A stretch of 64,000 bases of DNA from a virus. Position 1 is the stretch's first letter. Every line of letters begins with the position of its first letter. The stretch is from positions 1-64,000 of the IMG/VR virus record IMGVR_UViG_3300037493_003260; one strand, written 5' to 3'. Both the position numbers and the translations under genes were made by a program. The notes under the pieces were generated by a model. The model made no database searches, was not told the DNA's origin, and was given only the letters and a program-made list of their open reading frames with translations. This document shows, one piece after another, positions 24,328 to 46,965 of this stretch.

Positions 24328-26514
24328 TTAGGCTGCGATATTGATAATCCTGCCTTGGAACGCTTCGCAGGTCATTTGAAGTACCGAGAATTCGGCAATC
24401 AAAGTCCTGTAAGCAGACTGAAGCAACGCAAGGTCGATAGCTGACAACGGCATGAGGTCAACCATCTGCACTGCGTTACCGTCTTCCAACACTGTTTTGT
24501 CGTCGATGACGAGGGCAAAAGAATCACCATGAACGTCTTCCACAATATAGCGAGAGCCGATAATATCGACCAAGCCAAACGGGGAAAGCCATTTGGTAAT
24601 ACTGATACCAGCGGGAATATCCGCCATCGTACCAGCTCCTGCCTGGAACAGCTTGTAATAGCTGGACATCACCAGTTCGGAAATCTTCTGCAACTCACGA
24701 TAACCAACAACAACAGCTTGAGGCTTCCCACCCTTGTTCACGATTTTCTTGCAAACTGCAGTTAAATCGGAAAGAGCTAAGGGCTGATTAACGCCGCCAA
24801 CTTTGCAGTCTTGAACGTTCGTCACAATCTGTTTGTTAAGACCATCGAACTGAAGCGGAGAGACCGAAGAATCGCCGTTGATAATGGCCCATTCTTCAAT
24901 CAACGCTACGTTCAACATCTTGGTCTTAATTTGGTGCTTCTTAATATCCGTGTACGTCCCGCCAGCCATTTGTTCAAAGAACGAAACGGTAGCAAGGTCG
25001 CCCACACTGACATAAGGAGCCGATTTGTAAACGTAAGACGGCTGAGTAGCAGTCGGAAGCCCACCTTTGGCAAAAAAAGCATCCTCAGGGGCAGTTCCAC
25101 CAAGGAACAGATGACCAGCAGACTGTGCGCCTGCGGAAATGGTCGGAATTAGCTGGTACCAAGCATGCACTAATGTTACGCAATCTTTCGATTGGGATTG
25201 CTATTTCTAGCAACCTCTCATAGTTACCTATGAGGTCGGACTATATCATCACTATACTAGTGTTCGGCGTGTAGTCTCTACGGATTCTACTAGGTATTCT
25301 TAGTAGCCTTTCCTCGGTATTGTCCTTTGCAGGAGGTTCACCGATATAGCCAAATTTTACAAGGCCCATTGTGTTAAGCCTTGCCGTTCCCTTGAATCCG
25401 ATTGAGTCGGTTTCGGAGCGGAGTGTCCGTTGGTGCCATAATCGCCCAAATAAGATTTCTCTTATGGGATTGTTACACTGTAAATTAGCCAGCGGTTAGG
25501 GCATTTCTGCCTAACTCTGCATGTCACCATGCAGTTCGGACTATATCTTCAATTTAAGATTCGTCATGCACTAGGTTTGCGAATGTTGTTAATTTGATTA
25601 CTATATCCGCTAAGCCTTCTTAAATGTGTGGCGTTGAGTCTCTGAGGGAGTAAGTTGATACATTCATCTAAACGGTCTGATTTTCGTTTGATTGAAAATC
25701 GACACCCAGCTCTAATGAAAGAAGCTACGTTGAACCTGTAGTGGACAACTGGCTTAATACTACCTGCAAAGCCACCCTTACAGATTAACGGTTTGGGCCA
25801 AACTGAAACTCCAAGGGAAGTTAAAAGCTTGTTGTATTGAGCAAGTAAATCTGTGTCTGTTGAACAATAGCCTATTTGATGTCTATAGGTATCAAAGTGC
25901 TTCTGTTTAGACTTGCTAATATAACCGTCTCCATCTATAAAGCCAGTGATTAACTTATGCTTTACAATTGGAAGTGCTTCCCAGGTTTCGTCTGGTAAAG
26001 ATGACCCATTTTTCGTTGCCAGCAGTACCCATCGGCAGAGTTCGTCACACCGTACAAAAACGTTGTAAAGGAGCTTTCTAGTGCCCCGTTGCTGTTCAGA
26101 AATAGTAACCTTTCTGCCCAGTAATTTTTGTAAAGTAATTGCGACGGACTCAGCAAAGTCTTTATCGGTAACAGATAAACAAAATCTATAACAGTTATCT
26201 TGTGTAAGATTAATGCATCCATCACTGAAATAAACACCTATGAGATATGCTGTGTTTGAGTCAAGTTTAAATTGTATCATTTTACCTTTCCTGCTGATTG
26301 TCTTCTATACTCTATTATACCATATTTTTACACTTTGGTAATGGTATATTTATCAGAAGATGTTCCAGCAAATAGCCACATTATGAGACAGCGATTAACC
26401 TATCTCAGCTTGGAGGTCCTCACGAACCAACATCAAGCCGTCAACTGGAGTGGAACTAATAGCCTTCTGAATATCTTGAAGTGCTTGTTCTACGAGTTGA
26501 GCATTGTATGACAT
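24328..26514 (-). CDS. Major capsid protein, three exons: 26514-26402, 25446-25377, 25167-24328 (340 aa spliced)
   Basis: ATG 26514 with AAGGAG SD; 113+70+840 = 1023 nt in frame: MSYNAQ..LVREDLQAE-M-AIMAPTDTPLRNRLNRIQGNGKA-HAWYQL; EEWAIINGD..FDGL HK97-fold pattern. Confidence 0.92.
25168..25376 (-). mobile_element. Group I intron 2 of capsid gene (209 nt, no ORF)
   Basis: P1 AAGGCU/GGCCUU with U.G at the splice site; P10 AUG/CAU; R GUAGAGACUACACG; S GAUGAUAUAGUCC; terminal G. Confidence 0.92.
25564..26280 (-). CDS. Intron-encoded two-motif LAGLIDADG homing endonuclease
   Basis: YLIGVYFSDG and LITGFIDGDG. Confidence 0.9.
   Translation of the reverse strand: MIQFKLDSNTAYLIGVYFSDGCINLTQDNCYRFCLSVTDKDFAESVAITLQKLLGRKVTISEQQRGTRKLLYNVFVRCDELCRWVLLATKNGSSLPDETWEALPIVKHKLITGFIDGDGYISKSKQKHFDTYRHQIGYCSTDTDLLAQYNKLLTSLGVSVWPKPLICKGGFAGSIKPVVHYRFNVASFIRAGCRFSIKRKSDRLDECINLLPQRLNATHLRRLSGYSNQINNIRKPSA
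26314..26341 (-). promoter_or_regulatory. Putative intron-internal promoter for the endonuclease
   Basis: Extended -10 TGgTATAAT about 35 nt upstream of the ATG; weak -35 TTACCA. Confidence 0.55.
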
Positions 26515-26552: not shown

Positions 26553-27443
26553 TTACAGTGCTTTACCGAATTTTGAGTCCATGCTCTTATTCAGAACATC
26601 TTCACGAACCTTCTCCTGCTCGGCAGTTAAAGGTTTGCCTGACTGCACCCACTTTAGCACTTCTGCTCGTTGATTCTGGAATTGGGAATCATCGTTGTCG
26701 GTACTGTCCGCATTCTTCTCGATTATGCGCTTTCTAGGCATCGGCTTTTTCAAAAGCTCTGTTACCGCGTCGAAACGTTTTCTCAACGTCTCCAATTCAT
26801 TCGTGACCTTTGTTAAGGATTCTTTTTCTTCCTTAGCATCAGCCAATTTCTTTGCTTCTAATTCAGCAAGTTCTCTTTTCTTCTTTTCTTCTTCTGTTTC
26901 AACGACTTCTTCTTTAGATTCAGCTGCTTCTTTAGCAGGTGTTTCAACAGCTTCCTCTTTTGGGTCTTCCTTCTTGGCCTCAATTGCAGCAGCCAATTCA
27001 GCAGGAATAGCCTTGACAACCTCGGTTGCTTCATGTGTCTTAGCCTCTGGCATCACTTCTGCAACAGCCTTTGGTGCTTCAGGAGCACTCGGAGCAACAG
27101 CAGCAGCCTCTACGGGATTACTTGTAGCAGGTAGCACTGTTCCTGTTGGTGCTTCAGGCTGAATGCTTCCAACGCTTACTACAGGAGATGCAACTACAGC
27201 AGATGCCTCAACAGCGGACGGCTTAACTTCTGGCGCATCAGTAATATTACCTGTTGCAGCCCCTGCCATGGCTTTTTCGGTAGAGCTTTCACCCAGCGCG
27301 GGTGTTGCACTTGCGTTCTCTGGAGTTGCTTTAGCCCCTGGAACAGGCCTATAAGCACCTTCAAAAGCTTTTTCAAGAGCTTCGACCTTCTTCACCAAAG
27401 TCTCGATTACTGCACTAAATTTAATCATATCTTCCGTCGTCAT
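26553..27443 (-). CDS. Nested in-frame scaffolding protein (296 aa)
   Basis: GAGGAGG SD upstream of internal ATG (MTTEDM); A/E/K/P-rich, coiled coil. Confidence 0.75.
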   Translation of the reverse strand: MTTEDMIKFSAVIETLVKKVEALEKAFEGAYRPVPGAKATPENASATPALGESSTEKAMAGAATGNITDAPEVKPSAVEASAVVASPVVSVGSIQPEAPTGTVLPATSNPVEAAAVAPSAPEAPKAVAEVMPEAKTHEATEVVKAIPAELAAAIEAKKEDPKEEAVETPAKEAAESKEEVVETEEEKKKRELAELEAKKLADAKEEKESLTKVTNELETLRKRFDAVTELLKKPMPRKRIIEKNADSTDNDDSQFQNQRAEVLKWVQSGKPLTAEQEKVREDVLNKSMDSKFGKAL

Positions 27444-28295
27444 TTCGTTTATTCCTCCTCGGTTTGAAACGTTATGAGTTTGATAAGCAGTGCCAAGTAT
27501 AGCTTGCGCCTTCTTGTGAACAGCCTCAACTTCATCTGGAGTTAAGTTATATTTCTCCATTATTGCCAGTGCCGTTACGGCATGGACCTTATCGGACATA
27601 GGAAGCAGACGCTCTTTGATAAGCATGTCGTCTTTCTTGTACTTGCGAATGACCCCATAGCTGGAGTCTGCAAGCTGGTCAAGTTCTTCCCTGTCCAAAA
27701 CTTTTCTGGTTAAAGAATCCACTTTATCACGGTGGCTATGAATCTCAGCCATTAGCGGGTCCTCAGCCTCTGTAATAACAAGCCTATTAGAGTCCTCGAC
27801 GATTGCCGTTTGAAACGGTACTCCGTCAATGGACTTAACCAACTCAAAAGAGCATCCAGCGTTTGCTGGATTGTCTACAAGGGACAACTCATTCAAGCGG
27901 TATTTTGTGATACGGGTAACAGTGCGAGAACCGCCTGTTGCCAAGTCCTTTACAATCTGGACATTCTTGTGAACAGTCTGCCCACCAATAGAAAATCCAG
28001 TCAGTGTTCCATCCTTGACTTTCTGCCAGGTGTCTTCTGCGCCCTTGGAAATGTAAGCTTCGACCCACATCTTTTTGCTGTCATCATCAGGAATAATTTC
28101 CACAGCTTTGCCAACGGCTTTGGGTTCATGCATCTCTCGGATGTTTTTGCCCCAATTGGAAAAAGCTTCCTTACTGCCAGCATAGTCAACTATCTCGCCC
28201 TGCTTGTCCACAGATTCCGTGGTCGCCCATCCCGCCACAGTGCGCTTTTCCTCGTTTATTTTTGAAATCGGACAGTACAAATTAAAATCATTCAT
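26553..28295 (-). CDS. Prohead maturation protease (S78/XkdF-like) fused to scaffold
   Basis: Start reset to MNDFNLY after AGGAGG; VDKQGEIV, IREMH, LTGFSIGG, ELSLVDNPAN. Confidence 0.9.
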   Translation of the reverse strand: MNDFNLYCPISKINEEKRTVAGWATTESVDKQGEIVDYAGSKEAFSNWGKNIREMHEPKAVGKAVEIIPDDDSKKMWVEAYISKGAEDTWQKVKDGTLTGFSIGGQTVHKNVQIVKDLATGGSRTVTRITKYRLNELSLVDNPANAGCSFELVKSIDGVPFQTAIVEDSNRLVITEAEDPLMAEIHSHRDKVDSLTRKVLDREELDQLADSSYGVIRKYKKDDMLIKERLLPMSDKVHAVTALAIMEKYNLTPDEVEAVHKKAQAILGTAYQTHNVSNRGGINEMTTEDMIKFSAVIETLVKKVEALEKAFEGAYRPVPGAKATPENASATPALGESSTEKAMAGAATGNITDAPEVKPSAVEASAVVASPVVSVGSIQPEAPTGTVLPATSNPVEAAAVAPSAPEAPKAVAEVMPEAKTHEATEVVKAIPAELAAAIEAKKEDPKEEAVETPAKEAAESKEEVVETEEEKKKRELAELEAKKLADAKEEKESLTKVTNELETLRKRFDAVTELLKKPMPRKRIIEKNADSTDNDDSQFQNQRAEVLKWVQSGKPLTAEQEKVREDVLNKSMDSKFGKAL

Positions 28296-28329
28296 GCTAA
28301 GTTTCCTCCTCGGAATCTTTGTTTTATTT

Positions 28330-28611
28330 TTATTTACATCTACTGCAAAGCCATTTGCCATTTTGGTAAGTGGCCTTTGAAACTTGTTGATTGCATTTGT
28401 TACAGATGAGTGCTTTTTTCTCACCGATACCTGAGAAACCTGTAAGCCTCTCACCGTTATTCTTCAAATTTTTAAAGGCGTTGAACTTACGAGAATCGTC
28501 AATTTTACAAGTAAACGCATCCCCGCTTTCGTGTTCAACAACAAATTCGTGAGAACCTGTTCGGGTCATGCTCTTGACTGTATGCCCGTCGTCTACTTTC
28601 TTTTTAGTCAT
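28330..28611 (-). CDS. Small zinc-finger protein
   Basis: CNKC..CSRC; GGAG SD. Confidence 0.7.
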   Translation of the reverse strand: MTKKKVDDGHTVKSMTRTGSHEFVVEHESGDAFTCKIDDSRKFNAFKNLKNNGERLTGFSGIGEKKALICNKCNQQVSKATYQNGKWLCSRCK

Positions 28612-28623
28612 TATCCGTTTCTC

Positions 28624-29535
28624 CTAGGGTGCTACAATCTGGTCGCCATAGCGTAAATCACAACGACATCTCGAAAGACAATTTTGATTTCCGTACTCAG
28701 CTAAAAATTCATCTAGCGTAAACCATTTGCCTGAGTTTGCCTCGCAACCGTCGCAAACTTCGCCACCCTTTCCTTCGTCTGGGTGTATGCTCCAAATGCC
28801 ACCTTTAATTACTCTGTGCCCCTCGGAGGGCTTTGCTTCTTTTAGTGCTCCAATTGTTCCTGCCACTGCAGCTCCAACAATGGCTGCTGCATACATGAGT
28901 GCTCGGCTAAGCTTTGGAGTCTTGACACTGTTGTCGATTGCTTCCATGAGTGCATCATGGGTAGGATACTCTTGGTCTAAAACTTCATCCAGTCCATCGT
29001 TAATGTCATTTCCAAAGCCAGTAAGATACTCAGCGTTATCACTCAACAAGTCTTCGACTTCGGCATCGTTTTCAGGAGTAGTATCCGAATCGACCTCTTG
29101 CCCACTGATGACCTGCCCCCGCATTTTACCAGTTTCATAAGCGGCATAATACGGTTTCTCGGCTGCGTCAGCCAACGAAACCAGCAAACCTGCTACGGCC
29201 CCGTGAACTTTGCTTTTTTGTTCATCAGAGGCTTTGTAAGTTTCCTCTTTAGCAATATCTTGCAAGGCTTCTTTGACATCCTTAAAAGACCGATTCCAAA
29301 CCCGTGTAATTTTTCGTTCGTACGCTGCAATGATTTTGTTGAGTTTCCTAGTTACTTTTGGTTCAATAGCATCCCGTTTAAAAATAAGTTTAGGGTCACC
29401 ATTAAACTCGACTGCCGAAACTTTAGGGTACGATTCAGGAGACGTAATAAAAGTCACGCTATCATTATAGTGCAATCTGGCTTCCTTAATATCCATCGGC
29501 TTATCGAATTTAAGAATCATTAAGTTACACCTCAA
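28624..29535 (-). CDS. MuF-like head morphogenesis protein
   Basis: Helical body, C-terminal VCDGC..G.WF..CLSRCRC, between portal and protease. Confidence 0.75.
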   Translation of the reverse strand: MRCNLMILKFDKPMDIKEARLHYNDSVTFITSPESYPKVSAVEFNGDPKLIFKRDAIEPKVTRKLNKIIAAYERKITRVWNRSFKDVKEALQDIAKEETYKASDEQKSKVHGAVAGLLVSLADAAEKPYYAAYETGKMRGQVISGQEVDSDTTPENDAEVEDLLSDNAEYLTGFGNDINDGLDEVLDQEYPTHDALMEAIDNSVKTPKLSRALMYAAAIVGAAVAGTIGALKEAKPSEGHRVIKGGIWSIHPDEGKGGEVCDGCEANSGKWFTLDEFLAEYGNQNCLSRCRCDLRYGDQIVAP

Positions 29536-34874: not shown

Positions 34875-35147
34875 CTATTGGTTAGGTCCAGCTTGATAGT
34901 ACGACCCAACATTTGGTGAATCGCTGCATGTTCCCATACCCACAGGGGGTGTAATTTTATTCGAGTTCACTGGCTGTTTTTGCTTTTGACCATGAGCCAT
35001 GTGCCGATTCTTGCTGCCAGCTAAATCTTCACGAACCAGCTCAAGGCCAACCACGGGTGTAGCTGAAGTTTCCTTCGACAGCACCGAAAGCTGACCGCAA
35101 AGGTCACGCAATTTTTCTAGAAGCCTCAGCCGAGCAATGCTATCCAC
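34875..35147 (-). CDS. Small protein carrying a copy of the capsid N-arm
   Basis: KETSATPVVGLELVREDL matches capsid KAISSTPVDGLMLVREDL (13/18); probable GTG start at 35147. Confidence 0.75.
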   Translation of the reverse strand: MDSIARLRLLEKLRDLCGQLSVLSKETSATPVVGLELVREDLAGSKNRHMAHGQKQKQPVNSNKITPPVGMGTCSDSPNVGSYYQAGPNQ

Positions 35148-35823: not shown

Positions 35824-36170
35824 TTTTTGTTAATAGCTGTCCGTTTTACAAACGCCTTGAGCAGCCCTCTTTCGATGAGTTCGTCGTTGTAAGATGTGTC
35901 TTTTCCAGAAAGATAAAGGAACGCAAGATATGTTCCAGATTTCTCGGACTTTAAAGACTTGACGGTTACCTCTTTGTTAAGAAGTTTTTCGGTCAGTGTT
36001 TTCTTTATAAGCGTTGCCTTTTCAGGATTTTTATTTCCACGAAATTCCAAAAAGTCTATTCCTGCAAGCCGAAACTCTTGGTTTTTTAATACTCCGAAAC
36101 CCAGGTCAACAGTAAGGATAAGGCATTCCTCGCTGATAATTTCTGTTACAAGTGCCAGATATTTATGCAT
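35820..36170 (-). CDS. Staphylococcal nuclease (SNase)-like protein, degenerate
   Basis: VDLGFG..RLAGID..N.ELI..G retained; DGDT and DKYGR replaced by SEEC and EKSGT. Confidence 0.7.
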   Translation of the reverse strand: MHKYLALVTEIISEECLILTVDLGFGVLKNQEFRLAGIDFLEFRGNKNPEKATLIKKTLTEKLLNKEVTVKSLKSEKSGTYLAFLYLSGKDTSYNDELIERGLLKAFVKRTAINKK

Positions 36171-38631
36171 GTAAATCTTCCTTTATTGCATCTATTGCGG
36201 CTTTCGCATCAACCAATCCCACGCCGCATTCATCAGCGGTAAAGGCTAGCGGTTTTGCGGTTGTCTTAAGAAGGTGCTTCACTGCAGCACACCGTTCTTT
36301 ATAATCTTTGGTCCAACTTGGAGCCGCCTCAAGAATTAGTGCACAAATTCCTGCAACCACTGGGGTTGCCATAGAAGTTCCACTCATGCGTTGGTAGGGC
36401 ACAGCATCTGATTGAACAGAACAATTATTCATGGGGGTATCGGCACTTTTTACCGATGTAACCCCATTTTCGTAATAGCAACCACCATAAGAAGCTTTAG
36501 TGCCACCGCCTGGGGCTACAAGGTCAGGCTTGGTTAAATTCACACCGTTGAAAATCACAGGGCCACGGGAACTGTAGCGTGTAATCTTGTTGTCCCTGTC
36601 TACTGCACCGACAGTAATTACTTTTGCAGCACAACTAGGGGACCCAATTGTATTTGCTCCAGGGCCTTCATTTCCTGCGGCCACAACTACAACAATGCCT
36701 TCAGAAGCCAGTGCATCTGCTTCCCGTGAGATGGCATCATCAGGAGTTCCTTCGCCACCAAGACTCATGGAGATAATATCGGCTCCTTGGTCGGCAGCCC
36801 ACGACATTCCCTTAATCACGGTATCGTTTGACCCGTGCCCGCTGTCGTTTAAAACCCGTGCATCTATAAGAACAACTTTTGGGGCAACGCCACGATAAAG
36901 TTTTCCACCGCCAGCGATTACGCCAGCACAATGCGTGTTATGAGCAATAAAGCCATTTGCTGTATAGTTATGGTTTTTAGTGACTGTAAAATCATAGAGA
37001 GTGGTGTTCGTATCTTGTATTGAAATATTACAAATCTTGTCAGCAACTCGACGATGGCAGTTTGGATTCTTTAGCTTTTTAAAGTGTAAAAATTTGCCGA
37101 GTTCCGTGTTACAAGAGAGGCCTACAGCGTAGCACATATTTTTATTTCCGAAGGTACTCTTATTAGAGCTGTGTTTACAAATCCAAGAACGAATACCTAA
37201 GGCCTTAAGTAGGGAACAAAGTCCATCGGCAAATTGTTTGCTTCCAGTAATAATTCTAGCTTTGCTATTAATACAGCCATCTCCATCAATGGCCCCAGCC
37301 AAAAAAGAAAAAATAACACTTCGAGGAGACTTAGAAATAACGTAAGGTAACGTGACAGTTAGTGATTTGTTTCCAATAGGAATTCCAAGCTTATTAAATA
37401 AAAATACCAATTCTTTGTTATAGACGGAAACCCTATACGTATTGCGTTGCCTAAGGTCTTTCTTTACTTTCGGGGCATAATCAAATAACTCCTTAAAACC
37501 GTCGCAAAAATTTTGAACCAATTCAAGTGAATTACTAGTAAATTCGATTCTGGCGTTGCATCCAGCCTTCTCTTTTTTTAAATAGGACAAGTGACCGTCA
37601 GTTAATACTAGACCTACTAGGTACGCTAACTTTTCATTAACAGGCAAATTACTACCTCTAAATGGCACATAATGGTAATCATTTATATCTAACGAAGAAT
37701 CTGTAAGTTTGATGCACTCACCGACTTGGAGTTCATCAGCCCGTTTTTCTTTAATTGTCAATTCATGGCCCCTTGTTGAGGTAACCACAAAAACCTTGTG
37801 CCACGGCGTTAGGGCTAAACTACCACCTCTTGTGGTAATAGTGTACAACTTTCCAGTGTAAGGAATTTTATGTACAAATTCCATTTGGTCTGGCTCACAT
37901 ATTCCCTGAAGATTACAAGAAATGGTTTTAATGTTAAATCGTTTAATGTCTTTAACAGTAGAGCCATCCGTTAACTGGTAGGATTCTCCTGGAGATTTTT
38001 CGTATACAGTTTCGATTGTTTGCAATCCGCACAACGATGTGTACACTTTGGTATTGGCAGTTATACAGCCATGACCAACGCCATCCAGTTTTGCAATCTT
38101 GGGTGTTTTGGGGCGATTCCAAAACCATTTGCCAAAATAATCAGGCTGTGAAAAATCATACCGAGCAACTACTTTTCCTGCCAGGTCGGGGTGTCTGTCA
38201 TTGATTCCTGTATCGACGACAGCGACTTTAATTCCCTTTCCTTCGTACCCTGTTGTGGCTCTCAGTACAGAAACTTCTGTCTGAACTGCTGCCCTATCCA
38301 TATAAGCTCTGACTTGTTTCACAGGTTCAATGTCTACGTGGAGTTTCTCCTTGAGCCATTCCATTTGCTCAGAGGTTAACGCTGATTGAAATTCAACAAC
38401 CATGGCGTTAATACGCCGATGGAGTTGAATTAGTTTTCCGCCAAATTTTGCAATATCCTGAAGTTTTACGCCTGCCCGATTAAGAACTAGAAGAGCCGTA
38501 AGAAATGCGACTCCTGCAAGAAGGGGGTGCTTTGTAAAAACAGATTTAATGATTTTGCCAGCTTTAAGATATAAGAAATATCTCGGCAAAACATTTTCTT
38601 GACGTTGTAAATTTGTGATTTCTAAACTCAT
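36163..38631 (-). CDS. Subtilisin-like (S8) serine protease containing an intein
   Basis: VAVVDTGI, HG|TH, AAGN, SGTSMATP; N-terminal hydrophobic segment and propeptide. Confidence 0.93.
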   Translation of the reverse strand: MSLEITNLQRQENVLPRYFLYLKAGKIIKSVFTKHPLLAGVAFLTALLVLNRAGVKLQDIAKFGGKLIQLHRRINAMVVEFQSALTSEQMEWLKEKLHVDIEPVKQVRAYMDRAAVQTEVSVLRATTGYEGKGIKVAVVDTGINDRHPDLAGKVVARYDFSQPDYFGKWFWNRPKTPKIAKLDGVGHGCITANTKVYTSLCGLQTIETVYEKSPGESYQLTDGSTVKDIKRFNIKTISCNLQGICEPDQMEFVHKIPYTGKLYTITTRGGSLALTPWHKVFVVTSTRGHELTIKEKRADELQVGECIKLTDSSLDINDYHYVPFRGSNLPVNEKLAYLVGLVLTDGHLSYLKKEKAGCNARIEFTSNSLELVQNFCDGFKELFDYAPKVKKDLRQRNTYRVSVYNKELVFLFNKLGIPIGNKSLTVTLPYVISKSPRSVIFSFLAGAIDGDGCINSKARIITGSKQFADGLCSLLKALGIRSWICKHSSNKSTFGNKNMCYAVGLSCNTELGKFLHFKKLKNPNCHRRVADKICNISIQDTNTTLYDFTVTKNHNYTANGFIAHNTHCAGVIAGGGKLYRGVAPKVVLIDARVLNDSGHGSNDTVIKGMSWAADQGADIISMSLGGEGTPDDAISREADALASEGIVVVVAAGNEGPGANTIGSPSCAAKVITVGAVDRDNKITRYSSRGPVIFNGVNLTKPDLVAPGGGTKASYGGCYYENGVTSVKSADTPMNNCSVQSDAVPYQRMSGTSMATPVVAGICALILEAAPSWTKDYKERCAAVKHLLKTTAKPLAFTADECGVGLVDAKAAIDAIKEDLHA
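36937..38067 (-). mobile_element. Intein (377 aa) with LAGLIDADG endonuclease in the S8 protease
   Basis: HG|CITANT..LTPWH..LVGLVLTDG..FLAGAIDGDG..YDFTV..IAHN|TH. Confidence 0.93.
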
Positions 38632-38889: not shown

Positions 38890-40119
38890 TTATTTCTTTT
38901 CTTCAGGTTCTTTTTTGATATCGTCTTTTGTTGCCTCACATTTATTAGCACCCTGCCTAGCAACGGCAGCTTGCCCAATCGGAGAAGCAACGGCTACGGC
39001 ATCGTCAAAAGCATCTTTCTTTACTGGTTCTTTTACAGAAAGTTCTTGCCATGCAGATTTTGCCATGGCGACAATTTCTTCTTCGCTCAAATCTGTAATT
39101 TCTTTGAGCGTGTCAACTACGCCACGTATAAATTCTTCAGGAGCTTCCGCAGGAAGCGGCTCACCAGCATGGGCTGCGCTCACTTCAGTGGCAGCTGCTT
39201 CAGGAGCCTTAACTTCTGCAGGAATAACAGGAGCGTCAGCGGATTTATTGGTTACAATATTACCAGCTTCCGCAGGTCCAGAACTAGGGACCTTGGGAAT
39301 TTTCGGTTTCTTTGGCTTGGGAAGCAGGTCCGATAGTTGCGTGCCAAGCATATTAGCAGCAACATCAGAAACAAACGCCCCGATACCTTTTTCCGTTTTC
39401 TCGTCTTTTTGAAAACTTTTTACAGCTTTCAAAAGTTCGACATTGGACTGGTTCACATGTTCAAATCTGCCGTCAGACCACTTAACCATCAAACCAACCT
39501 GGCCTGATTTCGTCTGATACACTTTGAGTACATGCCCAACAACTTTGCTGCCATTTGACAAAGTTTTTACAACGATGTCCTGGGTCTTGATGGAGTCATC
39601 GTAATTGGCGTGTTCGGTCATGCGACCCACGCGGTCCTCTTCGTAGTTCTCCTGCGTATGCTTTTTCTCGTCAGCGTCGGCCCATTCCTCTTTGGTTTTG
39701 TCACCGTAGGGCTTGCCTTCGGTCTTTTCTGAAGGAACGGCTTCTTCTTTTTTGTCCGTAATAGCAGCGTCCTTAACAGGAGGAACAACAGCAGCATTGT
39801 CTGTTGCACCTTCTTTGCGTTCAGAAACATCCGCTTTGGAATCATACCCGCCTTCTTTTCCACGATTCTGTGCAGGGACCCCCTCGGTTGCTTTGTCCGT
39901 TGACGGAGCTTTTGGAAGCTCTGGACTCGCAGCTGATTTTCGGATGGCATCACCTGTAGTACTTGTTACTGTTTTGCTAACACATTTTTTAGCATCTAAC
40001 AATTTGTTAAGCGATTCGTTAACTAACTTCTCTTCCTCGTTAGTTAAGGGAATGCAATTCCTGCGCTTTTCGATGATTGCTTCGAGGCTTTTGCTAGTTT
40101 CTGATTTTTCCATTGTCAC
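38890..40119 (-). CDS. Putative internal head protein, low complexity
   Basis: A/E/K/P-rich; N-terminus shares a 21-aa motif with the scaffold C-terminus. Confidence 0.7.
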   Translation of the reverse strand: MTMEKSETSKSLEAIIEKRRNCIPLTNEEEKLVNESLNKLLDAKKCVSKTVTSTTGDAIRKSAASPELPKAPSTDKATEGVPAQNRGKEGGYDSKADVSERKEGATDNAAVVPPVKDAAITDKKEEAVPSEKTEGKPYGDKTKEEWADADEKKHTQENYEEDRVGRMTEHANYDDSIKTQDIVVKTLSNGSKVVGHVLKVYQTKSGQVGLMVKWSDGRFEHVNQSNVELLKAVKSFQKDEKTEKGIGAFVSDVAANMLGTQLSDLLPKPKKPKIPKVPSSGPAEAGNIVTNKSADAPVIPAEVKAPEAAATEVSAAHAGEPLPAEAPEEFIRGVVDTLKEITDLSEEEIVAMAKSAWQELSVKEPVKKDAFDDAVAVASPIGQAAVARQGANKCEATKDDIKKEPEEKK

Positions 40120-40128
40120 TCACCTTTT

Positions 40129-42930
40129 CTATTTAGTTTCTGCCCATACTCTAACGAGTCGAGCTAATTTGATTTTTTTGCTTAACTGGTCAATGCGTGC
40201 CATTTGAAAACTACGCTTAAGTGCATCTTTTAGTCCAGCTTTTCCCAGTGCTGCCATAGCACCAACATTTGTAGATGAACCAGATAAATACCGAAATAAA
40301 ACAATACCTGCAACAGTGCCAAACGCTTGCCAACCAATGTCGGCGATTGTGTCACCTGCAGCACGAGCTAAGCTGCGTCCCGCACGTCCCGCCGTCTGCA
40401 CTGCTATATCCTTCACAGCTCTGGGCAGAACTAAAGCGGCCTCTGATACCTGGCTGTGTGGTTTCTCTGTTGGCTTTTGTGCACCGCCAGGTTTCTGTGC
40501 TCCCGTAGGTTTTGGCCTGCCTCCAAGAGGAACACCCTCGCCAGCCCAACGTTCACGGGCGGCTTCTGCATGACCCTGTGGGTCACCACGCCAGCCACGC
40601 TGGCCTGACCCACCAATGCCAAAAAAACCCTTGTTGATGTCCTGGACTGTATCCGCTTTTTCTGAAAAAGTCGAAGCTGGCTCAGTCAGTTCTCTTTCGG
40701 CTGTTCCTGTACCAGGCGTACGTTCAGGCCCTTGTGGTTTCTTTCGCTGACGCTGCGGGTCATCCGTAGAAGTTTGGTCTTCTGGTAACTCATCGTCAGT
40801 TTCTACAGCCTCAGCTTCAGAATCATCGGCAGCCTCCGTGGGTTGCTCGGCTTCTGGAGATTGTGCTGTGTCACCTTGCAGAGTGGACAACAATTCTTCT
40901 ACTTTTGCTTGAAGAGGTTGAATGATTGCTTGCATCTCATCTTCACTTAAAAGCTGCTGGTCTCTTGCAAGTAATTCCAAATCTTTGAGTGCTCCATGCA
41001 GGGCAACCAAGGAATCATCGACAGACTGGACTTGTGCAATGGATTCCTGGGTGTTTGCTTGGGCTAAATCTTCCGTGGGTTTCTCGACACGGTACACTTT
41101 TGCTAAGCCACGAGAAACGACCAAAGCAGCTGCTTTAGAAAAAGTGCATAATGCCTTCTTATATAGAATGTCCTTCCCCGCCTTTAAATGGTCTTCTACA
41201 ATTTGATTGATAGCTTCATCCGTAAGGTCAGGATGTTCAGCCCGTTCGACGTTAAACATGGCCGTGCGATTTGGAATCATGTCTACGTCTACGATTTCGT
41301 TTTCCTCAGGTTTTTCTGATGTTTTCATAAGGTCTTCCGCTTTCATTCCTTTAGCGTATTCTTTTCGCCACTCGCCTAAAGTTTTTTCACTTGATAAATT
41401 TCTGAACGGTTCTTTAACGCCAAATACCAGGTCGTCTGGAAAATTTTTATTTCGCAAAATGGAATCAAAAGTATCAGCATAATTTCTGGAAGCCGACCCT
41501 TTTGCGTGTTCCATTTCTGTAGACCAATTCCAAAGATTAAGTTTTCCTGGCCCGCTAAGTGTAGGGCTATATGTCATCCGTGCCCAGCGGGTGTCCATGT
41601 CTCCCTGAACCTTTGCTCCATAGTAGTCCACTAGTTGAACAAAAATATCAGAATGTTCTCTGCTAGCAGCACCAACACCGTAGTAGCCGTTTGTACGATT
41701 ATAAAGAATTGCCATTTGGCCAGGAGTAGCCCCCCGTCTAGTGGCATCCCCAACTTCTTTTAGAACGTCTAATCCAAACCCCTCGTCGTGCAGAGCTGGC
41801 TTCCAACTGTGTGGAGCATATTCGTACCGTTCTCGTACTGTGTCAACAAATTTTGCTTGCCCAATCGTGGACGCATTAACAGGAATGTCTTTGCCAGCCA
41901 CGCTATCGTAAATTGCAAGTTGCTTATGCTTTTCTGCAGCCAGTAGGGCTTGATAACGATTGTTATGGGGAACCGATATGTCTAAATGAACCTTGCCCGT
42001 TTCTTTATTATGCCAGGTTCCGAGATAATTTCCTGGTTGTGCCAGGGTTGCTTTATTCTGCTTGATGTAACCATCCACACTGTGTGCAGTAAAGTTTTTT
42101 ATAGGTATAACTTTTTCCTGTGCTTTAAACGGAGAAAACATGTATCGTGCCACGGGGACTTCGCCTGCCATGGAAACCGTGTGGCCACCATTTGCAAGCG
42201 TAGTAGCGTAAGCAGAACGTCCTACGCCGCTGGCTGGAAACCGTGCAGTCACATTTTTGGCAGCGTTTGCTATCAATCCCCTGACAGCTGTACTTCTTAA
42301 AGCAGCGATTCCACCAGCGGCAATTGCCACGATGGCCGCCGTCTTGACAGCGGTTTTTAAACCGTCATGCAAATCTGTTTTGGAACGAGGAGCTGCTGGT
42401 TCATCGACTTCAGGGCCAGGACTGTCACCACGTAATGCGGCTGCTCTGGCGTGTCCTTCAGGGTCACCAAACCAAGCCTTTGCTAAATTTTTTGCAACCT
42501 GGTTACCTTCAAGATATTCAAGCATTCTTCGCTGGGTTTGAATGCCTTCTCTGGTATCAGATTCTCCAACTTTACGATTATCACCAGTGTACAGCACCCA
42601 CTTGTCACCTTCAGTGCGAATCCAATTGCCTCCAGCATCCCGACGTTTCTTTTCAACTTCTTCTTTAGGGGCTTTGGTATCTAGGCCACGTTCGTCTGAC
42701 ATGATAACTGGCACATCTGTGTGCCCAAGTTCTTTTAAAGCAAAAAACCGATGGTGTCCATCGGTTATCATCTTCCCTGGTTTTCCGTCGTTGTCTACTT
42801 CTGAGTAGACTATCGGGTAAACTTTGCCTGTTCGCTGGATTTCGGCTTTGATGTGGGAAACCTTTACAGGGTCGATGTCCCTGTTGTAAGGATTAGTGAG
42901 AAGGTCTTCTATTTTGCAAGTTTCAGTCAT
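40129..42930 (-). CDS. Large multidomain protein with N-terminal ParB/Srx-like domain
   Basis: PIV..ITDGHHR..A..LG..VPV; two W.GDP.GHA.AA motifs; acidic linkers; hydrophobic segments. Confidence 0.75.
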   Translation of the reverse strand: MTETCKIEDLLTNPYNRDIDPVKVSHIKAEIQRTGKVYPIVYSEVDNDGKPGKMITDGHHRFFALKELGHTDVPVIMSDERGLDTKAPKEEVEKKRRDAGGNWIRTEGDKWVLYTGDNRKVGESDTREGIQTQRRMLEYLEGNQVAKNLAKAWFGDPEGHARAAALRGDSPGPEVDEPAAPRSKTDLHDGLKTAVKTAAIVAIAAGGIAALRSTAVRGLIANAAKNVTARFPASGVGRSAYATTLANGGHTVSMAGEVPVARYMFSPFKAQEKVIPIKNFTAHSVDGYIKQNKATLAQPGNYLGTWHNKETGKVHLDISVPHNNRYQALLAAEKHKQLAIYDSVAGKDIPVNASTIGQAKFVDTVRERYEYAPHSWKPALHDEGFGLDVLKEVGDATRRGATPGQMAILYNRTNGYYGVGAASREHSDIFVQLVDYYGAKVQGDMDTRWARMTYSPTLSGPGKLNLWNWSTEMEHAKGSASRNYADTFDSILRNKNFPDDLVFGVKEPFRNLSSEKTLGEWRKEYAKGMKAEDLMKTSEKPEENEIVDVDMIPNRTAMFNVERAEHPDLTDEAINQIVEDHLKAGKDILYKKALCTFSKAAALVVSRGLAKVYRVEKPTEDLAQANTQESIAQVQSVDDSLVALHGALKDLELLARDQQLLSEDEMQAIIQPLQAKVEELLSTLQGDTAQSPEAEQPTEAADDSEAEAVETDDELPEDQTSTDDPQRQRKKPQGPERTPGTGTAERELTEPASTFSEKADTVQDINKGFFGIGGSGQRGWRGDPQGHAEAARERWAGEGVPLGGRPKPTGAQKPGGAQKPTEKPHSQVSEAALVLPRAVKDIAVQTAGRAGRSLARAAGDTIADIGWQAFGTVAGIVLFRYLSGSSTNVGAMAALGKAGLKDALKRSFQMARIDQLSKKIKLARLVRVWAETK

Positions 42931-44281: not shown

Positions 44282-46965
44282 ACTTTTTTACCATAGAATG
44301 TTAAGTGGCTTTTTTCATCATCATCAGGCCTACGAAAGCCGTTGCTGTTTGCTAACCGTGTGGTTCCTGCAACCCCTGCGCTAAACTGTGCTTTGGCATT
44401 TTTGATGCACAAATTGACAACAGCGGCAACTGCATCTGCAAGGTCCTTGCTTCCTTCTTTGCGACCTTCTTCAAGTGACCTTCGATAAGACATCTCTGGA
44501 TGGTCCACTTTGCCGTTTGGTTTTCGGATGAGTTCTTCGCACTCGCGAATGAAAACTGGGTGGTGATAAATGTCAAGCAAACCTTTGTAGATTTGTTCTT
44601 TCAAGGTGTCGTAGGCTTCGGTACTTCTGTCAACTGATTGTACCTCGGCAGGGATACCTTGCTTAATTAAAAGCTGCACGCTGTCAACAGAGTTGTGAAC
44701 AAAGATACCAGCAGACAAAGCAAAATTATGTGTGGCTGGAACTTCGATGTCGTATACGTCTTCATACCCAGCAAACTCAACAGAGACAACTTTATGGTTG
44801 TTGGCACCGCACTTAGTTTTGCTAATTTTATCCTTGGTTTCTTGGCTTCGTTTTTTGCCCGTCCAATAACCAGGATTGCCCTTGTGAGCATCAGACATCT
44901 TCTTGGCATACACGGGGTCTTGCCAAAGTTTTTTAATGCTAGCACTAATCTTTTTTGCATTGGCAGCATCGGGCGGCTTTAACAGTGCTGGGAGATTAAA
45001 CTTTTTGTTTCTCTCAGCCATCAACTGTGCTTGCCGTTTGCGTTCACCAGGAATGGCCCAACGTTTTTCACTAAGGGCTTTGTGTAGTGCTACGTGTTTC
45101 TTTACGTGAATATAGACCAAGTTTTCTGGGCTATTGTTTAAAGGGTTAAAATCTTTATGATGAACAACAAAATCTTTTGGCTTAGGACCATAGCAGGTAG
45201 CAGCAACTACGTTATGCGTAAAATCCCAGGTTTTAGTCTCAGCATTATAAATCTGTTCATACTGTCGGACAGAGCCATCCTTACGCTTGTAAGGCTTCAC
45301 GTATTTTGTATACAAAGGCATTAAACTGTCACCAGGCTGTAAAAACTGCACCTGTCTGTAGGTGCCATCACGCATGAGTATCGGGTGGTCTGGAGTAAAT
45401 TCAACAGTCTCGCCGCTATCCAAAGTTACACGGTATACGGGAACTTTGGTACCAGTTTTTCTTACAGGCTTACAAAGTGCTGGAACAATGCATCCAGCCT
45501 TTAAATCGTAAGAATATATCCACGTTTCCTTGGTAAGTTCGTCTATTCGTAAGTCGTTACCATTCAACAACTTAACCTTGTTGCTTCCTAAAGTACATTG
45601 CCAGCCATCATACGTAACCATTTTAATATTAAAGCCACTTTTATAAAGACCTTGTATAAACTGACGAAATTCATCAAAAATAATCTCTTGTCCAGGACGT
45701 GCTCGGACCTGCATCATAAAATCAATGACTGCAGCAGGCTGCTTCTGTGTACTAATATTTGCAGTTGAAAGTCCCTCAGCTTTAGTCAATTCTTTTATGT
45801 AGTCGTCGCTGAGATTGATACTCTTATTACGAGTAAAGTGCCCCATGGCAATGCCCGAATAGTCACCAGATTCTTTGCCTTTGGCCAAGTCAATGTGTAT
45901 AAAATAAGGCTGATTCTTAATCGGTCTAAAGAAATCCTTGAATTTCAATTTTAAAATGTCGTTTGTCCAAATGGCATCTCCTTCAACAGGAGACACACGA
46001 TTGGGGTTTATGATGTCCTTGATGCGAGATTTGTATTTAAAATAGCCCTCAGCGGCTGTTGAACCCTCACACTCGTAGATACGCTTTGCGTCTTCAGGAC
46101 TCTTTAAATAGTCATCTGCGAAGTCAGCCTTGGTACGTTTAACATTCCAAACCCACGTTGGGGCTTTCACGCGAAAGGTCTTTGCTTCCTTCTCTGCCTG
46201 CTGATAACGAATCATCATAAAATCGTTGTCGTCACGTTTGTATGATATCAACATCGTTTTACGATTAGAACCAAAGCGCGTTTTTTGAGTGGAGACAAGG
46301 GCTGTGTAGAGCTTGTCGGCCTTGCCTGGGTCAAAACCCCCCACTTCGTCGAAGATGGCCAGAAGAATATTTAAGCCTTCGCCAGTGTACTCTTCGCTAT
46401 CCAGTGAATAAGCCGTGATAGCCTTCGGAAATTTGATTTCACGCGTTTGAATGTCTGCTTTAAGGTCAAGACCGTGTTCCTCAAACCAGTTCTTTTTGGT
46501 TTTTGGATTTCTGCAAACGCGAATCATAGCAATAAGATTTTTAAAGAACACGTCTTTGGCAAGTCGTGCGTTTAGAGAAACGTTAGCTAAGTCGATTGCG
46601 GACTCAGGGGCATCCTCGGAGTTGTTATTGATGCCTAGCATTTTCTGCGGATTTCTCATGCACAGCAATTTATACACACAGTAAAGAAAGACCTTACAAA
46701 TCGTTCGGTCCTTCCCACCCCCCTTGCCCACCAATGCAATACCCTCGTCATATGTGGCATCCCATATCAGTGGGTCAGTGCCAAGCATGGCCTCCACGAA
46801 TTTCTGCTGCTCTGGATAACAAGGCTCGTGCAAAAACTTTTCAAAGAAGACCGAAGGTGAAACTGGAATCTCTTCCCAAGTGTCATCAGTGCGGCGCAAT
46901 GATTTGCTAGCAGCTGACGCTGCATTTTTTACCAGTTCAAAATCACTATTGTCCTGGAGTGACAT
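44278..46965 (-). CDS. terL: Terminase large subunit containing an intein
   Basis: Walker A GKGGGKD, Walker B AIFDE, nuclease HIDLA..D..YDGWQ|S..KDLADAVA. Confidence 0.93.
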   Translation of the reverse strand: MSLQDNSDFELVKNAASAASKSLRRTDDTWEEIPVSPSVFFEKFLHEPCYPEQQKFVEAMLGTDPLIWDATYDEGIALVGKGGGKDRTICKVFLYCVYKLLCMRNPQKMLGINNNSEDAPESAIDLANVSLNARLAKDVFFKNLIAMIRVCRNPKTKKNWFEEHGLDLKADIQTREIKFPKAITAYSLDSEEYTGEGLNILLAIFDEVGGFDPGKADKLYTALVSTQKTRFGSNRKTMLISYKRDDNDFMMIRYQQAEKEAKTFRVKAPTWVWNVKRTKADFADDYLKSPEDAKRIYECEGSTAAEGYFKYKSRIKDIINPNRVSPVEGDAIWTNDILKLKFKDFFRPIKNQPYFIHIDLAKGKESGDYSGIAMGHFTRNKSINLSDDYIKELTKAEGLSTANISTQKQPAAVIDFMMQVRARPGQEIIFDEFRQFIQGLYKSGFNIKMVTYDGWQCTLGSNKVKLLNGNDLRIDELTKETWIYSYDLKAGCIVPALCKPVRKTGTKVPVYRVTLDSGETVEFTPDHPILMRDGTYRQVQFLQPGDSLMPLYTKYVKPYKRKDGSVRQYEQIYNAETKTWDFTHNVVAATCYGPKPKDFVVHHKDFNPLNNSPENLVYIHVKKHVALHKALSEKRWAIPGERKRQAQLMAERNKKFNLPALLKPPDAANAKKISASIKKLWQDPVYAKKMSDAHKGNPGYWTGKKRSQETKDKISKTKCGANNHKVVSVEFAGYEDVYDIEVPATHNFALSAGIFVHNSVDSVQLLIKQGIPAEVQSVDRSTEAYDTLKEQIYKGLLDIYHHPVFIRECEELIRKPNGKVDHPEMSYRRSLEEGRKEGSKDLADAVAAVVNLCIKNAKAQFSAGVAGTTRLANSNGFRRPDDDEKSHLTFYGKKV
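44692..45597 (-). mobile_element. Intein (302 aa) with HNH and NUMOD3-like domains in TerL
   Basis: WQ|CTLGS..TPDHP..VHHKDFNPLNN.PENL..GKKRSQETKDKIS..VYDIEV..FVHN|S. Confidence 0.93.

Follow-up and report, generated by a model that had tools for sequence, protein, structure and literature searches.

A putative copy of the scaffold C-terminal hairpin at the N-terminus of a second protein in an uncultivated phage family

In phage P22, residues R293 and K296 of the scaffold's C-terminal hairpin are described as binding D14, E15 and E18 of the coat protein N-arm (PMC9965877). In phage 80alpha, the last 16-21 scaffold residues were reported to bind the coat N-arm, and the SaPI1 protein CpmB was reported to have a homologous helix-and-hook end, which forms identical contacts and can substitute for that of the 80alpha scaffold (PMC5644958). 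The internal proteins of T4 and the DarB protein of P1 are described as entering the capsid via N-terminal signals, which in DarB comprise the N-terminal 30 residues (PMC9024508). How tailed phages other than T4 and P1 select the proteins that enter the head is poorly known. The present analysis concerns a 64,000-nucleotide stretch of viral DNA, called the window below, which makes up positions 1 to 64,000 of the 84,088-base virus record IMGVR_UViG_3300037493_003260. Two proteins encoded in the window, a scaffold and a second protein of 407 residues, contain short stretches that resemble one another. On the sequence evidence, the first ~45 residues of the 407-residue protein are an old, diverged copy of the hairpin that ends the scaffold. 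This homology is solid and family-wide, and we infer its function, on good grounds, by analogy with the phages named above.

Relation between the two hairpins and the proteins that carry them

The first stretch, PLTNEEEKLVNESLNKLLDAK, is encoded on the minus strand at window positions 39988-40050 and corresponds to residues 24-44 of a GTG-started open reading frame (ORF) at 38890..40119. The second, PLTAEQEKVREDVLNKSMDSK, is encoded on the same strand at 26571-26633 as residues 608-628 of the ORF at 26553..28454 and stops five residues short of its C-terminal end. The coordinates and residues given for both stretches in the original prediction, which was made from the DNA letters, were exact, and its ungapped identity of 11/21 residues was reproduced (BLASTP of the single pair, 24.6 bits, E 0.007). 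By itself this E-value is only marginal once it is read as the outcome of an all-against-all comparison. Translation almost certainly starts not at the GTG of the longer ORF but at an ATG at 40113, which follows a GGTGAG ribosome-binding site and is the start in every homologue; the protein therefore has 407 residues, and the stretch occupies residues 22-42. The features compared are the following.

38890..40113, minus strand: gene of the 407-residue protein, encoding the hairpin module, a disordered acidic linker, a small Tudor/SH3-like beta-barrel, a disordered stretch and a C-terminal helical hairpin
39970..40113, minus strand: N-terminal helix-turn-helix module of that protein (residues 1-48), the putative copy of the scaffold's C-terminal hairpin
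39988..40050, minus strand: the 21-residue stretch, consisting of a Pro-Leu-Thr cap and most of helix 2
26553..28454, minus strand: prohead protease-scaffold fusion, 633 residues from its GTG (580 residues in the called gene)
26556..26693, minus strand: C-terminal helix-turn-helix module of the scaffold (residues 588-633), the presumed coat-binding domain

Loci with scaffold homologues were obtained using the portal gene as an anchor; a scan of viral contigs with the alignment of the 407-residue family had yielded 2 loci, neither of which extended to a scaffold gene. In a first hhalign comparison, the last 50 residues of 13 distinct scaffolds were aligned with the first 62 residues of 24 homologues of the 407-residue protein, giving a score of 39.8 over 44 columns (P 2.6e-8, probability 95.2%). 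With 21 scaffold C-termini and 58 N-termini the score was 47.5 (P 6.7e-10, probability 96.6%). Column shuffles (n = 400) scored 9.1 on average and 16.8 at most, and none of the 400 reached the real value of 39.8. A further control used 99 real 60-column windows taken from the alignments of the 407-residue protein, the portal and the scaffold, charged helical regions of the scaffold itself among them; no unrelated window scored above 17.4, and a reversed alignment scored 7.5. When the full-length profiles were compared, the sole alignment joined residues 2-42 of the 407-residue protein with residues 588-628 of the scaffold (E 9.8e-5), and the relation between the two proteins is therefore confined to the module. 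The N-terminal stretch, proposed beforehand to mirror the scaffold's C-terminal element, thus proved to be a genuine conserved relative of it by profile comparison with shuffle and window controls. At the weaker level of profile against sequence, the link was also seen within the genome itself: among 1877 six-frame ORFs of the 84-kb record, the top non-self match to the profile of the 407-residue protein's N-terminus was the scaffold end (residues 593-631, E 0.022), and the profile of the scaffold end matched residues 24-44 of the 38890..40119 ORF at E 0.13, at rank 2 behind a spurious 36-residue ORF.

Some sequences were set aside in assembling these alignments. The homologue P0017, which is without an N-terminus, was excluded from the N-terminal sets. 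Nine of the 27 scaffold rows returned by phmmer were duplicates of loci already counted (one record in two collections), and the scaffold rows of L004, L027/L057 and L063 were cut by contig ends. L039, a complete ORF with no module, was excluded from the profiles but is counted as one miss of 14 below.

At the DNA level, 37/63 bases are identical between the two stretches of this genome, and the same codon is used at 6/11 of the residues common to both. Recent gene conversion was rejected on these figures, and the duplication is therefore old.

Both stretches were confidently predicted to form helix-turn-helix hairpins. In AlphaFold2 (AF2) models built on the family alignments, the scaffold has helices at residues 587-605 and 611-629 (block-mean predicted local distance difference test, pLDDT, 79-90), and the 407-residue protein has them at residues 2-18 and 25-45 (pLDDT 86-91 over residues 11-40); Pro-Leu-Thr sits directly ahead of helix 2 in both models. 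The scaffold C-termini share a pattern of a helix, a short turn usually with Gly-Lys, a Leu followed by Thr or Pro, and a second helix that mostly ends LNK(M/S)(L/I)DxKFG. In distant members of the 407-residue family, helix 2 ends KKFG, AKFG or TKFG, which is the KFG signature of the scaffold. In the union alignment, the consensus residue is identical in 13/41 columns, and the two best-kept shared positions, numbered in the scaffold and the 407-residue protein respectively, are L609/L23 (92% and 98% conserved) and K628/K42 (100% and 97%). Additionally, searching with a union profile revealed the module in another, distant clade (L020, L052, L053 and L032), where it is scaffold-end-like, including the helix 1 Trp; the L032 module aligned with the scaffold end of L009, a member of a different clade, with a score of 88 and 17 identities.

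The label "scaffold" used in the original prediction describes the tail of its protein, which is scaffold-like, but the protein as a whole is an S78-type prohead protease fused to that tail. In order from the N-terminus, its 633 residues comprise the protease, a helical segment, a long linker that is disordered, acidic and Pro-rich, and the C-terminal hairpin. The N-terminal third matched Peptidase_S78 in Pfam (PF04586, E 1.4e-4), the fusion matched the head maturation protease family phrog_9427 (E 2.7e-39), and the AF2 model of the protease part matched the T4 gp21 protease, 5jbl, in Foldseek (E 1.8e-4). The C-terminal module, matched by the module profile at E 3.8e-20, is kept in 13/14 distinct scaffold homologues with a complete C-terminus.

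In the 407-residue protein, the module profile matched positions 39970-40107 at E 1.4e-17. This protein has 20 homologues in a library of 5.8 billion proteins and 59 representatives there with its full-length family profile (A3), and its N-terminal 60 residues are the best-kept part of the family. The best stretch starts within the first 10 residues in 44/59 representatives; in the other 15 it lies outside the N-terminal module, these being fragments or other domains. Beyond the hairpin, AF2 predicted a small beta-barrel at about residues 180-221, with Tudor/SH3-like Foldseek matches of E 1.6e-3 and weaker, as well as a second helical hairpin spanning residues 326-360; pLDDT is below 50 in about half of the protein. 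Most family members are acidic (isoelectric point about 4.6-5.8). Neither the protein nor the module matched a Pfam or PHROG family; the module profile found no PHROG family at E up to 0.1 beyond three single-member matches, and against all PDB sequences its best match was ribosomal uL24 (E 0.011), with no scaffold. Foldseek searches with the full models recovered the Tudor/SH3-like barrel and the protease domain and not the hairpins.

Two variations on this architecture were observed within the family. In the L020, L052 and L053 proteins, the module is internal and follows a Cys-rich domain (CPxCA ... PPxxW..C), encoded on the plus strand at L020:3760-4866, L052:4997-6034 and L053:2806-3948. 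The same domain is C-terminal in other family members, e.g. P0014-P0020, so that the domain order of the former appears permuted relative to members of the P0014-P0020 type. Separately, the homologues P0138, P0145 and P0154 contain long Arg/Lys/Gly-rich inserts with a net charge of +27 to +45, and these may be DNA-binding versions of the protein.

The number of copies was counted by searching whole records with a module profile of 47 positions built from 23 segments, in eight genomes at least 80% complete. Exactly two strong copies were found in each of the seven complete relatives (7/7, G001-G007) and in the genome of the window, at E 1e-12 to 1e-21: one at the scaffold end and one in a protein of the 407-residue family, the second copy always being in that family (in G004 and G007, at the N-terminus of its member). 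Two fragmentary records, 51% and 37% complete, yielded the scaffold copy only. No further copy was found among the 1877 six-frame ORFs of this genome, and all 59 library representatives of the A3 profile belong to one protein family. On these counts, the hairpin is shared with one conserved partner protein and not with a set of tagged cargoes. A weak third match was observed in G006 (E 6.7e-5 over 17 columns), in a stand-alone 60-residue ORF (L067:161-343, plus strand; G006:C1 about 44860-45042) far from the head genes; it has the look of a small hairpin and may be a free-standing third copy of the scaffold end.

Proposed docking on the coat N-arm and its alternatives

Docking to the capsid interior is the most economical reading of the duplication because the coat N-arm is bound by the comparable C-terminal hairpin of the P22 scaffold and likewise by the helix-and-hook of the 80alpha scaffold. 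We lean, with moderate confidence, towards the reading that an old duplication of the scaffold's coat-binding hairpin docks the acidic, largely disordered 407-residue protein on the inner wall of the prohead. By analogy with P22 and 80alpha, the scaffold end would be a coat-binding domain, and its copy would dock the 407-residue protein on the same N-arm sites, inside the prohead and beside the scaffold. Two conserved lysines of helix 2, K37 and K42, which align with scaffold K623 and K628, may contact the acidic, highly conserved N-arm. The prohead protease may later free the body of the protein at a conserved (I/L)-R-K past the hairpin, as with the T4 capsid targeting sequence, and the freed body would either stay in the DNA-filled head and be ejected, as cargo, or leave or be degraded like the scaffold, as an auxiliary core protein. 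Its acidity and disorder are in keeping with a scaffold-like role that ends with departure at DNA packaging; its extra folded domains, and a gene block shared with a large ParB-domain protein and a subtilase, are in keeping with a packaged protein. The features on which these steps depend are as follows.

26397..26513, minus strand: exon 1 of the gene for the major capsid protein; it encodes the N-arm, which by analogy with P22 and 80alpha is the presumed docking partner of both hairpins
39937..39945, minus strand: Ile57-Arg58-Lys59 of the 407-residue protein, a conserved (I/L)-R-K 12 residues past helix 2 and a candidate prohead protease clip site
26715..26723, minus strand: Ile578-Glu579-Lys580 of the scaffold, within an invariant PxPRK...(V/I)EK stretch just upstream of its module and a candidate protease site

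Around the first candidate site, T53, G54, R58 and K59 are at least 90% conserved among 20 homologues of the 407-residue protein, and TG(D/E)x(I/L)RK is kept, with exceptions, in most of the 58 N-termini. In the 13 scaffolds, R574 and K580 are invariant, and P571, P573, K575 and E579 are at least 90% conserved. An N-arm-like N-terminus was found in 9/12 of the ORFs downstream of the relatives' scaffold genes; it is highly conserved among the nine, and the capsid N-arm keeps DIQK(A/T).

Several observations weigh against the favoured reading. The original prediction had each stretch preceded by a similar helix, and both first helices are indeed predicted and aligned in the profile comparison, but their consensus residues differ, scaffold W602 being aligned with the invariant K16 of the 407-residue protein. 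Per-column conservation of the two families is also uncorrelated (Spearman 0.02, p 0.92); the binding surfaces of the two hairpins may therefore differ. Across the eight genomes, hairpin pairs from the same genome scored 333 against a permutation mean of 281 (standard deviation 28) and are thus weakly more alike, with 1696/40320 permutations reaching the observed value (p 0.042); within two clades, 10/120 and 4/6 permutations reached it. Two hairpins with one partner might change together, and a weak signal of this kind is unsurprising given how strongly the N-arm, as the presumed partner, is conserved in the 9/12 relatives in which it was read. The most distant scaffold homologue, in L039 (one of the 14), is without the module at its C-terminus or elsewhere in the 21.5-kb locus, which is that of the most distant portal relative; its 685-codon protease-scaffold frame ends without a hairpin, through loss of the module or an error in the gene model. 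No scaffold was present among the 59 whole-library HMMER matches of the full-length A3 profile; the link is therefore out of reach of plain HMMER across databases and needs profile-profile comparison or a within-genome search. The scaffold matches cultured phages only via its protease domain, the portal is at most 28% identical to those of cultured phages, and the 407-residue protein has no cultured relative, its tblastn search against 50,697 phage records being without a match. Finally, the acidity and disorder of the 407-residue protein fit a scaffold-like protein leaving the head as well as they fit cargo, so that the terms "internal protein" and "cargo" of the original prediction are presumptive.

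The helix 1 difference and the uncorrelated conservation profiles would also fit a copied hairpin that binds a partner other than coat. This could be the portal or the protease domain, the small 90-residue protein encoded at 34875-35147, or the scaffold hairpin itself, with which it would form a mixed pair. The tether would then be the scaffold core or the portal vertex and not the shell. The 90-residue protein is putatively N-arm-like, and a hairpin that binds the N-arm could equally bind it; homologues of it were found in L003, L008, L009 and L030. A non-coat partner nevertheless seems unlikely to us, considering that helix 2 holds the best-conserved shared residues (L, the NK pair, D and the final K) and that the counterpart region in P22 contacts the coat N-arm.

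The 407-residue protein could alternatively be a competitor or modulator of scaffold-coat binding, i.e. a second internal scaffold that tunes nucleation, head size or scaffold release and is not delivered as cargo. It carries the same kind of module as the scaffold by hhalign, it is acidic, largely disordered and scaffold-like, and each genome has a single conserved copy, which would be typical of a core factor in assembly and not of variable cargo; SaPI1 CpmB, which acts on the binding site of the 80alpha scaffold, is a described precedent (PMC5644958). CpmB, however, is a satellite's weapon with its motif at the C-terminus, and here the gene is the phage's own. The extra domains of the 407-residue protein (the Tudor/SH3-like barrel and the C-terminal hairpin, with Cys-rich and very basic inserts in relatives) would be needless for a pure scaffold. 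We consider this role decidedly unlikely.

The motif had also been proposed to be a general peptide address, portable between several cargo proteins of this phage. Its position, N-terminal in most members and internal in L020, L052 and L053, and the weak third copy in the 60-residue ORF of one genome (E 6.7e-5) would be in keeping with portability. That proposal did not hold up against the copy counts: two strong copies were present in 8/8 genomes, with the single weak third copy in G006, and the genome-wide HMM (hidden Markov model) search suggested for finding further tagged proteins returned no other strong copy, neither an extra match in the 1877 ORFs nor more than one family among the 59 representatives. 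A general address is thus highly improbable, and for this family the counts go most of the way to refuting it. That two charged amphipathic helices came to resemble each other by chance or convergence, without common ancestry or a shared function, is very improbable too. In favour of this, the pairwise E is only 0.007 and was picked post hoc, the within-genome HMM E-values are 0.022 and 0.13, and both stretches are short, with many E and K residues. Against it, the profile-profile significance grows with added sequences (P 2.6e-8 to 6.7e-10), shuffled, reversed and real helical control windows score no higher than 17.4 against 39.8-47.5, and the Pro-Leu-Thr cap, the KFG ending and the bridging sequences of the distant clade are shared.

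Docking of the 407-residue protein on the coat N-arm thus remains the reading that we favour. A bolder version of it, which we regard as doubtful, is that the hairpin is a self-sufficient, position-independent loading domain, whether N-terminal, internal or alone, and that it and the separate N-arm-like protein encoded next to the portal make up a docking code of two parts, in which hairpins bind N-arms and copies of the N-arm bind hairpins. On a foreign protein it would then cause loading into proheads of this HK97-type lineage, followed by clipping at (I/L)-R-K.

Gene neighbourhood

The minus-strand order of genes in the window is terminase, a 933-residue ParB-like protein, the 407-residue protein, a 62-residue ORF, a subtilase with an intein, small ORFs and the portal, followed by fibre-like genes, a 303-residue ORF, the protease-scaffold fusion and an intron-split SU10-like capsid gene. 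The gene of the 407-residue family lies upstream of the portal wherever the flank shows it (the window, L003, L009, L012, L020, L032, L033, L048 and L052), and terminase was also matched upstream in five of those nine loci. In G004, the family's gene is ~22 kb from the scaffold gene.

The 933-residue protein (window 40129-42930, minus strand) has a ParB-like N-terminal domain matched by several PHROGs at E 1e-6 to 4e-8 and contains two copies of a GDP(E/Q)GHA..AA motif; it is directly upstream of the gene of the 407-residue protein, likewise in L003. The subtilase (36163-38631, minus strand; Peptidase_S8, E 5e-57) contains an intein with a LAGLIDADG endonuclease, and intein-free homologues adjoin the gene of the 407-residue family in L003 and L009. 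The 90-residue ORF at 34875-35147 adjoins the portal gene. Between the portal and scaffold genes, the 303-residue ORF (28624-29535, minus strand) corresponds to part of far larger frames in distant relatives, which span 859 to 1485 codons just past the portal (L012:11921-14497, L033:12040-16494 and L048:11977-15462, plus strand). This suggests that the ORF is a domain of a large multi-domain head protein that was split off here. The major capsid gene is interrupted (24328-26513, minus strand): past its short first exon, an intron carries a LAGLIDADG gene (25564-26280), and beyond this intron come a micro-exon near 25380-25445 and, last, the main exon.

Comparison with known systems

The uncultivated family to which the window belongs (genomes of 92-105 kb, an HK97-type portal and a protease-scaffold fusion) appears to solve the selection of head proteins by duplicating its scaffold's coat-binding hairpin onto one further protein. 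If the proposed binding is true, a natural principle known from the conflict of 80alpha with SaPI1 would also operate when a phage assembles its own heads, and the family would offer a natural counterpart of engineered P22 scaffold-tag loading, as well as a defined 45-residue tag with a candidate clip site for loading HK97-fold shells. The result also provides a bioinformatic rule for finding internal head proteins of metagenomic phages, namely to search each genome with a profile of its own scaffold end.

The hairpin of P22 gp8 is used in biotechnology as a cargo-loading tag and is not known to be copied onto another phage protein in nature. As described for P22, gp8 (PDB 2GP8) resembles the scaffold of the window in having a two-helix hairpin at the extreme C-terminus, conserved basic residues and an acidic N-arm as the presumed partner (PMC9965877, PMC11456595). 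The two differ in that no sequence relation was detected between them and that the scaffold here is fused to a prohead protease.

In T4, the capsid targeting sequence spans about 10 residues and occurs on several unrelated proteins, whereas here a predicted 45-residue hairpin is found on a single protein family per genome. The likeness to the T4 and P1 signals, as these are described, lies in the N-terminal position on a head-module protein and in the possible removal by the prohead protease just after the signal (PMC9024508).

In the account given for 80alpha gp46 and SaPI1 CpmB, as in the present case, the coat-binding end of the scaffold has a homologous counterpart on a second protein, and both are described as using the same coat N-arm site, as is presumed here (PMC5644958). 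There, the copy is described as C-terminal in both proteins, ~16-21 residues long and marked by an RIIK motif, and it belongs to a parasitic satellite that resizes the capsid (PMC5644958). Here, in contrast, the element is a hairpin of ~45 residues, N-terminal or internal, phage-encoded in all complete relatives examined, and no RIIK is present in the alignments.

Keyword searches of an open-access library, which were not exhaustive, found no paper in which the hairpin at the end of a scaffold recurs at the start of a second protein of one phage. Among known systems, 80alpha gp46 with SaPI1 CpmB comes closest; in function the nearest analogy is with the T4 and P1 signals, and in structure it is with the P22 gp8 hairpin. 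The present system differs from all three in the combination of a whole hairpin domain, copied within one genome, its N-terminal or internal position in a single protein, and a scaffold fused to a protease.

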